Source: Chloroflexota bacterium
Lineage (GTDB): Bacteria > Chloroflexota > Anaerolineae > JAAEKA01
Direction: 5' to 3'
Assembly (NCBI GenBank): GCA_029558955.1
Contig: JAKQCW010000150.1
Span: 18,079 to 82,078 of the forward strand
Length of the DNA: 64,000 nucleotides
The translations under genes were made by a program, and so were the position numbers. Under the pieces are notes generated by a model. It was not told the origin of the DNA. It searched no databases and saw only the letters and a list, made by a program, of their open reading frames with translations. Within the stretch, counting starts at the first letter, position 1; each line of letters opens with the position of its first letter. Positions 18,721 through 31,242 of this stretch are shown piece after piece.

Positions 18721-19797
18721 TCAGCGCACCACATCCAGCGCGGCCTTGGCCAGCGTCGGCGGATGGAGCAGCATGTTGGCGTAGCTGGCGTTGGCCATGG
18801 GACAGTAGCATTCCTTGTTGGCGATGGAGCGGCGCATCTTGGCCATCTCCTCGCCGAACCAGATGGGGGCGATGTCGTAGTCGTGATCGCGCAGGTTGCC
18901 CGTCCCCTCGGCGCGAATGCAGCAGCTCCACAGGTCGCCGTTGGGGCCGATCTGACAGGAGGCCCAGCCGGCGTAGCAGTCGATGACCTGGGTGCGCTCC
19001 AGCAGGGTGCGTTTGGCCAGTTGGTAATATTGGGCGCGGAAGGCCTGGGTGAAGCGGGCCATGCCTCTGGCGTGCGCCCGGTGCGCCTTGTCGCTCAAAA
19101 AGTCGGCCACCGGCGCATACTGCTCGGCCAGCGGCGTGATGCCCCAGCCCACCGTGTCCAGCTCCACCCGCTCCTCGGCCACCTCGGTGATGTAGCTGTC
19201 AGGCTGGAGCTGTTGCAGGCCCTGGTAAGTTTCCTCGAAGAGGTGGATGTTAAAACGACTGATCACGGTGTGTACGGTCAGCACCAGGTTGGAATAGCGC
19301 GTCTGCAGCTCCTTCAGCCGGCGCCAGGTCTCCATGGAGCGCTCCCAGTTGCCCGGCACCCCGCGGATGTCGTCGTGTACCTCGCCCACGCCGTCCAGGC
19401 TCAGGTTGATGCCCACCTGGGACCGCTCACAGGTGCGCACGATGTTCTCGGCCTGAGCCAGCACCCGATCAGGGAGCAGGCCGTTGGTGGGAATGGTGAT
19501 GTATTCCGGTCGGCAGTGACGGTAGCCGCTGATCACCATCTGGTCCAGGTCATCGCGCAGGAAAGGCTCGCCGCCGGTGAAGGTCATGTAGACCGGGGTG
19601 CGCCCCAGCTTCTGAAAGACCTGGTCCCATTCCTCCAGGCTTAGGTCATCGTTGGGCTTGCGCCACACGTCGCAGGTGCGGCATTTGCTGTTGCAGCGAA
19701 AGCTGATGCTGATCACGACGCTGAAGGGGTACAGCTTCGGCCAGCCAAAGCGGCGGAAAGACCAATAGAGCGGCAGTTTGGGAATCAATCCAAGCAT
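18721..19797 (-). CDS. Radical SAM enzyme with a C-terminal SPASM/twitch-like Cys-rich domain.
   Basis: It has the CNSKCRTC (CX3CX2C) motif and GGEP, plus the C-terminal ..[24 protein letters not shown].. cluster. Confidence 0.8.
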
Positions 19798-19850
19798 AAA
19801 AAAACTCCGGAGGCCCAGGTGGAACCTCCGGAGTCACGGTCGAAGCCGGA

Positions 19851-20152
19851 TCAGATCAAGATGCCGGCTGGCTCGCGGGCTTCCGCCAGATTCCACACCA
19901 GCCATTCGTCGCTGTCAAGGACCCAACTCTCGGCATCTGGCCCCAGGTCGTCCCAGCGACCCCGGGTCAGCTCCAGCGTTGCATCCTTCTCGGCGTTGAT
20001 TTGTTCGAGCAGCAGGTCCCACTCATCGGGAGCAGGCACGTCGATGTCGATGCTGGTGCCGTTGGCCAGATGGCTCACATCAGCCTGAGGCACGAAGACG
20101 CCATCCTGCAAGACGACGGCAATTGTGGTTTTGATCTCAGACATAGATAATC
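19851..20152 (-). CDS. Small acidic hypothetical protein (100 aa) with a DUF104-like N-terminus.
   Basis: The start is at MSEIKTTIAVVLQDGVFVPQ with the RBS GGAGGA 7 nt upstream. The C-terminal half is very acidic. Confidence 0.4.
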
Positions 20153-20327
20153 CTCCAGGTAAAGAATCGCAGCCGCTCAGCGGCAACGCAAACATCAAAG
20201 AGTATACACCACCGGGAGGATTTAGTCGCGTAGTATTCACTCCAAATTTGTGCGCTGTTTATTCATGACATGTTGCGTCAATAACATAAGCAGAGCATCC
20301 GGTTGCCGGCAGGTCGGAAAGGAATGA

Positions 20328-20534
20328 TCAGCCCAGATTGTCGATGTACTGCCGCAGCTCGCGCTGGTTGACCTTGACGTAGCGGTCGGCGACGATCTCG
20401 GCCATCTCCTGCGGGCTCAGCCGAATGCTCAGAATCTGCAAGGCATCCTCCGGCGATTCGCCGTAGGCCAGCTTCTGCTTGCCATTGCGCAGGTCGAACA
20501 GATACATGTAGTGGGGGTTGCTGAAACTGCTCAT
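20328..20534 (-). CDS. Small hypothetical protein (68 aa).
   Basis: Sequence: MSSFSNPHYMYLFDLRNGKQKLAYGESPEDALQILSIRLSPQEMAEIVADRYVKVNQRELRQYIDNLG. It has no recognisable family. It is located between the small peptide gene and the DUF104-like gene on the same strand. Confidence 0.35.
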   Translation of the reverse strand: MSSFSNPHYMYLFDLRNGKQKLAYGESPEDALQILSIRLSPQEMAEIVADRYVKVNQRELRQYIDNLG

Positions 20535-29595: not shown

Positions 29596-29632
29596 GGTGG
29601 TGTTCCTCTCATCATTACGGTAAATATCTCAC

Positions 29633-31080
29633 TCAGGATCTGATCGCCATCAACTGTTTGGCGGCAATAAACAGGTCGCGCGGGCTCATCTTCACCGGGT
29701 GGATGCGGGATTTGATCATGTAGCCCTTGAACAGCTTGTGCATCCACCAGTAGAGCGTGTCGGTTACGAAGTTGTGCGGCGCCTTGATCAGCCAGCGGAT
29801 CAGCGGCTCCAGCCGCGGCCATTCGACGCCGAGGGCGAAGAGTCGTTGCAAGTGTTCGACCTGGCTTTTCTCCTCGGGGTTTTCGAAGACCATGATCGAG
29901 CGTTCCCAGGCGATCTCGCTGATGTCGTCGAAGCTGCCCACCATGTACTCCTGATCCTCGGCGAACTTGCCCAGCTCGGTGCCGGGGTAGGGCTGGAAGA
30001 GGAAGGCATGGGAATAGCTGATGCGCGCCTGGCCGTTGAGGCGCATGGTGTCCAGGTCATCCTCCAGCCGGCTGCTGGGCAGGCCCAGGATGTTGGTGCT
30101 GGTGATGTGAATGCCCGCGTCGCGCAGCATGTTGCCCGCCTGGATCATATCCTCGCGCGTCATGCGGCGCTTGAGCAACTGAACGCGAATGCGGTCATTG
30201 GCCGCCTCCACGCCCATGCTGACCGTGCCGCAGCCGGCCCGCTTGAGCAGCTCCACCTTGTGCGGTCCCTTGACGATCAGGTTGGCGCGCACGTTGGCGA
30301 AGAAGGGCAGTCCCACTTCCTTGGGCCACTTGTCGGCGAACTCCTCCAGCCAGTCGTCGTAGATGATGAACAGATCGTCGATGAAGACCACCTGCTGCAA
30401 GGGCCACTGCGTGCGCACCCACTGGGCCTCGGCGATGATCTGATCCACCGGGCGCTGATTGCCGCGCTTTTCCCGGCTGTAGATCTGATAGTAGGCATGG
30501 TTGAAGCAGTAGGTGCAGTTGTATGGGCAGCCGCGCGAGCCCATGAAGTGCTTGATGGGGGTAACGCGGCTGTAGTCGTGCCGGCTGTAGACCAGACCGC
30601 GGTCAGGCAGAGGCAGATCGCCCAAATTCTGGAGCAGCGGCCGCACCGGGTTGCGCACGATCTCATCCTCCAGCTTCAGCCACCAGTTGGGCAGGTCAGG
30701 CTTGACGCGGCCGTTGGCCAGGGAGTTGGCCAGGTCGACCAAGGCCTCGTCCCCCTCGCCCACACAGATGCCATCCACGCCCGGCTCCGAGACCATCTCC
30801 GGGAAGAAGGTGGGATGGGGCCCGCCGAAGACCGAAAAAGGCGCCTTGTCCTTGAGCGCGCTCTTCACCTGGCGGTTCAGGTCGAAGTAGTATTGGTGCG
30901 AACCGGTCATCACGCTGTAGGCGACGATGTCAGGCTCCACCTCGCGCGCCCGCTGGATGGGATCCTCCTGCGCGGCGATGGCCAGGAATGTCTCGTGGCC
31001 GTCCCGCTTCAGGCAGGAGGAGAGCTGCATGATGCCCTGGGGTTCGTAGTCGATCTGTTTTTCGATGAATAGTACACGCA
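29633..31080 (-). CDS. Cobalamin-binding (class B) radical SAM enzyme; first gene of the cluster.
   Basis: The start is at MRVLFIEKQ (31080). Motif ..[14 protein letters not shown]... The ORF-track extension to 31192 is not supported. Confidence 0.85.
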
Positions 31081-31214
31081 TGGTAGGACCTTTCTCGCCA
31101 GGGTAAGCAGAGTACGTGTGGGCGTTGTCCACGGGGAACGGCCCAATCAAGTGGCGGTGTTGGAGGCTGCTGAGCCGGCCAGACCGCGCCAACGCGCCTC
31201 TGACCTACGGCGCG

Positions 31215-31242
31215 ATTATATCCACGGGCAAGGCATTGTCAA
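31215..31242 (-). promoter_or_regulatory. Consensus sigma70 promoter driving the radical-SAM cluster.
   Basis: The minus strand reads TTGACA-16 nt-TATAAT (-35 at 31237..31242, -10 at 31215..31220) in an AT-rich pocket. This leaves an approximately 125-nt leader to the ATG at 31080. Confidence 0.55.

Follow-up and report, generated by a model that had tools for sequence, protein, structure and literature searches.

The question raised by this locus is what eight radical S-adenosylmethionine (SAM) enzymes, encoded in one short gene run, do together, and whether their target is a peptide. The run occupies positions 18721-31242 of a 64,000-nucleotide (nt) stretch of DNA from a Chloroflexota bacterium (assembly GCA_029558955.1, contig JAKQCW010000150.1, positions 18,079 to 82,078), hereafter the window; coordinates are those of the window, and all operon features lie on its minus strand. 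In order of transcription it contains the radical SAM genes G1 to G7, three small open reading frames (ORFs; P1, P2 and P3) and the radical SAM gene G8. An earlier note on this DNA had proposed a novel pathway that was either hyper-methylating or related to those of ribosomally synthesized and post-translationally modified peptides (RiPPs). All 11 ORFs, taken from an ORF listing with a third-position G+C filter, were confirmed at their coordinates as an unbroken run of genes, and the same genes were called independently on identical contigs from many metagenomes and in the metagenome-assembled genome (MAG) GCA_035340395.1. ORF listing, Pfam profiles and a motif scan bore out that eight of them encode radical SAM proteins with CX3CX2C cores, and one such motif was present in each of G1-G8. 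Assuming that 1-2% of genes encode radical SAM proteins, eight within 11 consecutive genes have an estimated chance probability of P < 1e-8 per genome; the operon is genuine and extraordinarily rich in radical SAM genes. The reading that we favor, with somewhat better than even confidence, is that of a true Caldilineales operon in which eight lineage-conserved radical SAM enzymes are grouped around a two-component enzyme, G7-P2, and which is probably not a RiPP cluster.

The evidence that carries this reading concerns G7, a divergent B12-binding radical SAM enzyme of 466 amino acids (aa; 20824-22224), and P2, its conserved 68-aa partner (20328-20534). One genome per GTDB species was scanned with G7, relatives of which were found in 469 species, and the best 80 loci of these 469 species were retrieved (individual loci are cited by number, as L001 and so on); the cluster proteins were placed in the retrieved loci by tblastn, and the ORFs were also clustered de novo. 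P2 adjoined G7 in 81 of 81 loci with readable downstream sequence, with gaps of -4 to 581 nt, and was 68 aa long in 80 of them. At 90% identity, the homologues of P2 fall into 2426 clusters, and the 120 matches listed were all at least 72% identical, mostly exactly 68 aa long and named at source only as "hypothetical protein"; no Pfam or NCBIfam model covers P2. The protein is devoid of cysteine, and in 77 distinct full-length sequences taken from the retrieved loci the residues M1, S2, S3, F4, P7, L12, F13, G18, K21, L22, Y24, G25, A31, L32, R38, L39, E43, R58, L67, and G68 were invariant. AlphaFold2 predicted a compact beta-beta-alpha-alpha-beta-alpha fold (pLDDT 83.5) with disorder at residues 1-5 only. 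A profile search run exhaustively against 1.84 billion representatives returned just 100 matches; those compared with G7 and P2 proved to be members of the family, fragments of it or fusions, with no remote homologue among those compared.

In at least eight diverged representatives, a G7-type enzyme runs into a P2 domain as a single polypeptide. The full-length fusion P0332 (521 aa), found on two independent contigs with no other radical SAM gene nearby, matched G7 at 56% identity across 435 residues, with its P2 domain at residues 457-521, and in the inspected fusions a linker stood in place of the N-terminal MSSF of free P2. The P2 fold was retained in the AlphaFold2 model of the fusion (pTM 0.79), and a Foldseek search matched this model as a whole to the class-B radical SAM structures TsrM, AprD4, MgmA, OxsB, TokK, and CysS. 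Gene fusion together with invariant adjacency argues that P2 and G7 work as one enzyme, with P2 as a subunit and not a precursor. Most likely, then, P2 provides G7 in trans with a C-terminal domain and is one of its subunits; the N-terminal tail of P2 probably serves in docking and can be dispensed with when the two are tethered. Comparison across these genomes establishes G7-P2 as the conserved core of the operon, with G7 as its predicted catalytic subunit, and we propose that the pair represents a new subunit architecture for B12-binding radical SAM enzymes, split or fused, with a dedicated 68-aa protein. Among the top Foldseek matches of the fusion model we also noted PDB 9a6d, an integrative model titled 'MTAB-YVFG', which, to judge by its title, joins a second protein to a radical SAM methylthiotransferase and may be a precedent for a small partner.

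An alternative is that P2 is itself the substrate, or the precursor of a protein-derived cofactor, and is modified by G7 with or without the other radical SAM enzymes, in the manner of SCIFF and ScfB, PqqA and PqqE or MftA and MftC. P2 is indeed the sole conserved gene of the system that does not encode a radical SAM protein and is always beside G7; its N-terminal tail (MSSF..P.H) is invariant though predicted to be disordered, its C-terminal LG is invariant too, and the only PDB sequence match of G7 (9CCB, E = 4e-5) is a protein methylase, MgmA/QCMT, the B12-binding radical SAM glutamine C-methyltransferase of methyl-coenzyme M reductase (MCR). However, the replacement of MSSF by a linker in fusions from at least eight diverged lineages indicates that the tail is dispensable when tethered, and P2, unlike leader-core peptides, is conserved over its full length with a confidently predicted compact fold, a fixed length of 68 aa and no cysteine; moreover, neither a RiPP recognition element (RRE) nor a peptidase accompanies it in the profile scans described below. 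We consider a substrate role for P2 unlikely. A role as a sulfur carrier of the ThiS/MoaD type, prompted by MoaA and rhodanese neighbors and by the invariant C-terminal glycine, was also considered, and was rejected since P2 ends in LG and not GG and its predicted fold is not a beta-grasp.

The candidate precursor put forward earlier was P1, a 67-aa Gly/Ala/Met-rich Gly-zipper ORF (20606-20809). In that scenario, the six B12-binding enzymes would C-methylate P1 many times and the SPASM enzymes would cross-link or epimerize it, giving a product similar to polytheonamide and other proteusins. A plausible ribosome-binding site (RBS) and start codon do lie 14 nt past the G7 stop codon, as had been reported; operons with multiple B12-binding radical SAM genes are known in proteusin and bottromycin clusters; and the Gly/Ala/Val/Ile/Asn-rich make-up of P1 loosely recalls the polytheonamide core. 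Against this, P1 was found only in L001-L006, all from the window's own species, and was absent from the other loci examined, including every syntenic locus outside the species. In L010, the G7 of which is 97% identical, there is no P1 and the G7 stop codon overlaps the P2 ATG; nothing equivalent to the 289-nt P1 spacer is present in L010, L011 or L013, and the G7-P2 spacers of L011-L013 are about 105 nt long and non-homologous to that of the window. The best family match of P1 was a weak one to the membrane motif Gly-zipper_YMGG (18 bits vs a cut-off of 28.9). Pfam and NCBIfam profile scans of the window proteins, read at curated cut-offs, revealed no NHLP or Nif11 leader in P1, P2 or P3 and no PqqD/RRE, YcaO, protease or exporter/transporter, nor is there a PoyD-type epimerase, and the highest score with TIGR03975 (rSAM_ocin_1) was 127 bits (G3) against a cut-off of 281.85. 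Equivalent spacers in relatives hold toxin-antitoxin-like cassettes. Taken together, we regard a precursor role for P1 as highly improbable. The possibility of a hidden precursor was rejected as well, as no conserved ORF of at least 20 aa was present in the intergenic gaps of at least 120 nt in 14 cluster-bearing loci.

The earlier note had made conservation of the small ORFs in syntenic loci a test of its reading; P2 accompanied G7 in all 81 readable loci, but P1 was restricted to one species and P3 to close relatives. P3, an acidic 97-aa ORF (19851-20144), was detected at 36-93% identity in the closest relatives only; its designation as DUF104-like could not be sustained, as it matched no NCBIfam model and no Pfam family even at E <= 10, and in other Caldilineales an unrelated winged-helix-like ORF of 90-98 aa takes the P3 position after P2. 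From their distribution, P1 and P3 are best described as incidental small genes, probably so in the case of P3, with P1 a species-specific insertion outside the conserved system. P1 is exactly bracketed by an 8-bp inverted repeat (20598-20605 and 20812-20819), of which the GGAGGACC arm doubles as the P1 RBS and the GGTCCTCC arm directly follows the P1 stop codon; this repeat may be an insertion footprint or an mRNA structure. The cassettes in the G6-G7 or G7-P2 spacers of relatives, identified by eye, consist of DUF4160/DUF2442-like ORFs in some loci and of a zinc-finger MqsA-like ORF with a partner in others (L010 ~9120-10000, L013 ~9070-10000, L082 ~9350-10000, L028 11395-11976, and L029 9320-9685); small mobile genes seem to land in the spacers of this operon.

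We then asked to which families the enzymes themselves belong. Radical_SAM (PF04055) and N-terminal B12-binding (PF02310) domains both scored above the Pfam cut-offs in G1 (482 aa, 29633-31081; B12-binding 61 bits, Radical_SAM 75 bits), G2 (501 aa, 28090-29595), G3 (489 aa, 26414-27883), G6 (496 aa, 22293-23783), and G7 (B12-binding 34.6 bits, Radical_SAM 49.6 bits), whereas G5 (446 aa, 23794-25134; Radical_SAM 83 bits) was marginal, with a B12-binding score of 30.8 bits just below the cut-off of 32.1; of the six class-B enzymes first named, five therefore stand on both domains and G5 is borderline. The radical SAM motif reads CPYNCTYC in G1 and CPWQCVFC in G7. Domains and motif together place these enzymes in the class-B superfamily, with cobalamin use and methyl transfer putative; some radical SAM enzymes with a B12 domain, AprD4 for example, do not use B12. 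None of the eight enzymes reached an NCBIfam equivalog cut-off (HpnJ, BchE, HpnR, PhpK, ApyD, and others). The best NCBIfam matches were BchE for G1 (90 bits vs 481), HpnJ for G2 and G6 (197 and 190 bits vs 578), ApyD (197 bits vs 750) and BchE (183 bits vs 481) for G3, MJ_1487 (84 bits), HpnJ (82 bits) and the MCR Gln-methylase family (~82 bits), all below cut-off, for G5, and HpnJ (61 bits) for G7. Judged by these cut-offs, G1-G8 are in no characterized class-B radical SAM family. The six B12-binding enzymes were only 21-41% identical to one another, the closest pair being the paralogues G2 and G6 (41%), and this low mutual identity points to old distinct families rather than recent duplicates. 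By sequence, the nearest solved structure to G2 was AprD4 (6fd2, E = 7e-25). The description of the locus as an uncharacterized dense radical SAM operon stands, and full-text searches of the literature retrieved no description of the cluster; in a 2026 review of B12-binding radical SAM enzymes the words 'partner' and 'accessory' do not occur, and a hopanoid preprint offered no relevant link to the cluster.

The two remaining enzymes, G4 (392 aa, 25217-26395, or 338 aa if translation begins at the alternative start 26233; Radical_SAM 65 bits, SPASM 34 bits) and G8 (358 aa, 18721-19797; Radical_SAM 62 bits, SPASM 25 bits), had been classed as SPASM-type. The Pfam SPASM model did score above its cut-off in both, but the full seven-cysteine motif, including CX2CX5CX3C, was absent from both. 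In 338-aa numbering, the C-terminal cysteines of G4 are only C232, C250, C299, and C302, arranged as CX12GX4C plus CX2C, and G8 has six (C274, C281, C292, C293, C330, and C332). Four cysteines are the pattern of Twitch domains with a single auxiliary cluster, as in BtrN and MoaA, whose substrates are small molecules, and we take the G4 pattern CX17C...CX2C to match that of BtrN. G4 scored best in NCBIfam with the tungsten-enzyme maturase family W_rSAM_matur (109 bits vs 380) and G8 with PTO1314 and twitch-type families (~70 bits); an NCBIfam twitch family was among the top matches of both, though below its cut-off (63 and 67 bits vs 170). G4 and G8 therefore look like reduced, Twitch-like auxiliary-cluster enzymes, which weakens the earlier argument that a SPASM domain marks them as peptide maturases, and no RRE (PqqD-like) domain, fused or nearby, was found in the Pfam and NCBIfam scans.

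These assignments also bear on the possibility that the enzymes modify a peptide or protein encoded elsewhere, be it an unlinked RiPP precursor or a housekeeping protein, as MCR is for Mmp10 and MgmA. The operon has no scaffold genes, class-B radical SAM enzymes include protein modifiers such as the PDB match of G7, the best profile match of G3 is a RiPP enzyme (ApyD), and the lineage-wide conservation resembles that of core-protein modifiers. Yet all scores lie far under the cut-offs, with the ApyD score of G3 barely exceeding those for BchE and HpnJ, the scans detected no RRE domain, G4 and G8 are without the full SPASM motif typical of peptide maturases, and no candidate substrate was identified; we judge a substrate of this kind to be quite unlikely.

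Whether the eight enzymes belong together was assessed from the synteny of the other radical SAM genes, which were counted as near G7 when within 10 kb. At least three layouts were observed: G(1)2-3-4-5-6-7-P2-(P3)-8, as in the window; G2-3-4-G7-P2-G5-6-8 (L038, L042, L045, L046, and L071); and G7-P2 followed after ~4 kb by G2-G6-G8 (L034, L035, L044, L057-L059, and others). Among 35 well-flanked species loci (at least 8 kb on either side of G7), 29 had at least one other radical SAM gene and six had G7-P2 only. G6 was the radical SAM gene most commonly found near G7-P2, G8 was there at 68-94% identity in at least 34 species, and G2, G6, and G8 formed a recurrent module, with G3 and G4 adjacent to each other in ~20 species loci. 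Of the 80 species, only 7, all among the closest relatives, had G1 within 10 kb of G7, and G1 orthologues (61-94% identity) are widespread in Chloroflexota and often solitary (L093 and L094). As judged from gene order in these loci, G2, G6, and G8 are persistently linked to G7-P2 despite rearrangements, and G3-G4-G5, present beside the pair in a subset of loci, and G1, rarely so, are later additions to the core. The radical SAM genes are not co-inherited as a block: orders and subsets vary, and G1, the sole family traced further, also occurs alone.

This variability raises the possibility that unrelated radical SAM enzymes were merely gathered, for example through co-regulation by their iron-sulfur (Fe-S), SAM, cobalamin or low-oxygen needs, with no single product. 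It would agree with the solitary occurrence of G1 and of G7-P2, with the wide variation in composition and order, with the SufR-like, HesB, Nfu, and MoaA neighbors seen in relatives and with the low mutual identity of the six B12-binding enzymes. However, the linkage of G7-P2 with G6, G2, and G8 has survived at least three rearrangements and is seen across the well-flanked species (29 of 35), the genes in the window follow each other closely on a single strand downstream of one promoter, and clustering this persistent usually reflects a shared pathway, so that we consider mere gathering rather unlikely.

Several observations were made on the surroundings of the core in relatives. In the third layout, the 4-kb insert holds genes for a SufR-like regulator whose C-terminus is rich in Cys and for a bona fide MoaA (360 bits vs a 284-bit cut-off), together with HesB/IscA-like, Nfu-like, and rhodanese genes, with NuoB, NuoCD, and NuoI genes divergently oriented upstream. 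This neighborhood of Fe-S and molybdenum cofactor (Moco) genes is located at 11613-15500 in L034, with equivalents in ~20-30 Caldilineaceae loci, and in L008 (1-6500) a stand-alone G7-P2 is beside an ArsR-family helix-turn-helix regulator, a HesB-type gene, and nuo genes. Such a setting may reflect either shared regulation of Fe-S-demanding enzymes or mere inherited synteny. A different gathering of radical SAM genes was noted in the distant Chloroflexota locus L092 (10001-17370), downstream of SufR-like, MoaA, HesB, and RtcB genes. Its members are a G1-like gene (60%), a G6-like gene (61%), and a second G1-like paralogue (44%), along with a possible G2-like pseudogene, seen as fragments distributed over small ORFs.

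On the reading that we favor, the enzymes would be functionally linked and act on a common substrate drawn from primary metabolism, which might be a molecule of the sugar/cyclitol, lipid or cofactor kind, or else a macromolecule with a housekeeping role; supply by primary metabolism would explain the absence of scaffold-building, leader-processing, and export genes. Each B12-binding enzyme would cleave SAM to a 5'-deoxyadenosyl radical and abstract hydrogen from an unactivated carbon, followed by methyl transfer from methylcobalamin or by a cobalamin-assisted rearrangement or oxidation, as in HpnJ, BchE, AprD4, and OxsB; for C-methylation, the methylases TokK, CysS, and MgmA would be the analogues. 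The Twitch-like G4 and G8 could use their auxiliary cluster as an electron sink in dehydrogenation or bond formation, and P2 would cap or extend the substrate-binding side of G7. By analogy, a non-ribosomal substrate appears somewhat more likely than a peptide or protein: the nearest characterized relatives of G2 and G6 (HpnJ and BchE by profile, AprD4 by PDB) have sugar/cyclitol-type or tetrapyrrole substrates. The lineage-wide spread and the Fe-S/Moco neighbors, in turn, point to a conserved role in physiology more than to a secondary metabolite of sporadic occurrence. The RiPP-like pathway proposed in the earlier note is not supported by this comparison, as RRE, leader, YcaO, protease, and exporter were all missing from the scans, P2 is found fused to G7 and the genes are modular; a hyper-methylating tailoring pathway is possible. 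That G7-P2 is a hitherto unrecognized heterodimeric form of B12-binding radical SAM enzyme in an operon making one heavily radical-tailored product (with multiple C-methylations, rearrangements or cross-links), such as a new lipid, glycan or cofactor conserved in Caldilineales, or that P2 serves as the modified scaffold, is a more specific proposal that we put forward only tentatively and regard as doubtful.

Several points weigh against the operon as one substrate-sharing system. With no enzyme at any curated cut-off, its chemistry is assigned by distant analogy only, and the sole PDB sequence match of G7 is to a protein-modifying methylase. The invariant disordered MSSF and the C-terminal LG of P2 could, given the predicted structure, be modification sites and not docking elements. 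G7-P2 stands alone in the six well-flanked species noted above and in L007, L008, and L090, and lone G7-P2 together with lone G1 suggests that the genes may not form one pathway. Finally, all loci are from one order, so some of the synteny may be inherited rather than selected.

Expression signals within the window were next considered. The window has a G+C content of ~65%, with the operon region slightly below (0.61-0.64). A sigma-70-type promoter (TTGACA-16 nt-TATAAT, 12 of 12 matches; 31215-31242) is located ~130 nt upstream of G1, downstream of a terminator-like hairpin (31329-31303) that ends the upstream 144-aa gene. Most gene spacers are 10-82 nt, a wider range than the 10-50 nt first given, and two are longer (G2-G3, 206 nt; P2-P3, 183 nt). 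The single consensus promoter described earlier is present, but a second, strong terminator-like hairpin (14 pairs plus a T-run; 19803-19835) lies between P3 and G8 and overlaps the RBS and start codon of G8, which suggests that G8 may not be simply co-transcribed. This hairpin is GC-rich and is followed by TTTTTAT running straight into the G8 ATG at 19797, and the GGAG in its descending arm is the sole RBS-like element for G8; it may act as a terminator or an attenuator, or else in translational control. A 27-bp tandem repeat (31431-31616) with the unit AAAATGGCCGGAGTCGAGGCTTCAGCC lies between the operon promoter and the upstream gene of 144 aa and is present in seven copies in the window, nine in L002 (6215-6453), and five in L003 (6321-6453); these differences across metagenomes indicate copy-number polymorphism inside one species. 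A second promoter-like site (31411-31384) is just beside the AAAATGGCCGGAGTCGAGGCTTCAGCC repeat. A 14-bp tandem repeat, ATGCGTAACACGTA, in 2.6 copies (27904-27940), lies within the long G2-G3 spacer, and a short CACCCTGT-like repeat in the G7-P2 spacer of L013 is unrelated to ATGCGTAACACGTA. No riboswitch or RNA leader was matched by Rfam anywhere in the window.

The lineage is borne out by source labels: homologues of G7 and G1 are named in their sources as proteins of Caldilineaceae, Caldilineales, Anaerolineae or Chloroflexi MAGs, and the best 80 genome loci with G7 were all labelled Caldilineales, Anaerolineae or Chloroflexota. Neighbors in the window are ordinary and include a gamma-carbonic-anhydrase-like hexapeptide protein, a small ORF with a lipoprotein-like N-terminus (by eye), LacI, a sugar ABC transporter, mannosyl-3-phosphoglycerate synthase, GH38, FeoB, a xanthine-dehydrogenase-type Moco enzyme, proline dehydrogenase, DinB, RibD_C, and an NTP_transf_5 protein; in the retrieved loci, none of the flanking genes was kept beside the cluster in other species. 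No tetrapyrrole, hopanoid or phosphonate genes were found among the large window ORFs scanned, in agreement with the earlier note, and window scans likewise detected no non-ribosomal peptide synthetase or polyketide synthase, protease or exporter genes, and no shc, hpnH, bacteriochlorophyll or aminoglycoside genes near the operon. On the plus strand, a 952-aa ORF (33915-36773; 878 aa as called on L001) encodes two tandem extracellular solute-binding domains, between which residues 556-583 form a sub-threshold Nif11-like stretch (23.6 vs 23.8 bits); this ORF belongs to a sugar ABC system and is not a RiPP precursor. Also on the plus strand, a compatible-solute/mannoside locus (40419-48846) comprises a GT1 glycosyltransferase, the mannosyl-3-phosphoglycerate synthase (463 bits), the GH38 alpha-mannosidase, a HAD phosphatase, and GH13; it is unrelated to the radical SAM operon and not conserved beside it.

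Most class-B radical SAM enzymes are without a known function, and this locus offers a tractable entry point. Caldilineales with G7-P2 number hundreds of species and are abundant in activated sludge, digesters, and sponges, and the co-localizing radical SAM families are defined (G2, G6, and G8, then G3-G5 and G1) and suitable for joint expression. Should the enzymes share one substrate, the outcome would be a new heavily radical-tailored, lineage-conserved metabolite or macromolecule; should they not, the locus would still document a new subunit architecture for B12-binding radical SAM enzymes. The analysis also corrects a tempting but wrong annotation of such loci as RiPP clusters. The superfamily itself is known, and the novelty is a split or fused B12-binding radical SAM enzyme with a dedicated 68-aa subunit amid an accretion of uncharacterized radical SAM enzymes.

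Comparison with known systems places the locus as follows. Like the proteusin (polytheonamide, PoyB/PoyC) and bottromycin clusters, it has several B12-binding radical SAM genes per operon; unlike them, it has no conserved precursor, NHLP/Nif11 leader, epimerase, YcaO, protease or exporter, is lineage-wide and modular rather than a sporadic block, and scores below the TIGR03975 cut-off. It is likewise without the precursor, RRE, full SPASM domain, and accessory enzymes of the sactipeptide, ranthipeptide, pyrroloquinoline quinone, and mycofactocin systems, although the presence of a small conserved ORF always beside one radical SAM gene throughout the taxon recalls SCIFF/ScfB, PqqA/PqqD/PqqE, and MftA/MftB/MftC. 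G4 resembles the Twitch enzymes BtrN and MoaA in its four C-terminal cysteines, whereas the G4 and G8 scores are below cut-off, Pfam calls the region SPASM, and the number of clusters is a prediction. G7 shares with MgmA the character of a single-function class-B radical SAM enzyme, and MgmA ranked high among the structures matched by the G7::P2 fusion model; in contrast, the sequence match is weak and confined to the radical SAM core, the host here is a bacterium without MCR, and MgmA, so far as could be found, has no dedicated small subunit of the kind that G7 has in P2. With the HpnJ/BchE/AprD4 group, G2, G6, and G3 have in common a CX3CX2C radical SAM barrel preceded by a B12-type Rossmann domain at the N-terminus and, for HpnJ and BchE, near full-length profile alignments; their scores of 150-200 bits against cut-offs of 480-580 set these enzymes apart as relatives and not orthologues of HpnJ and BchE.

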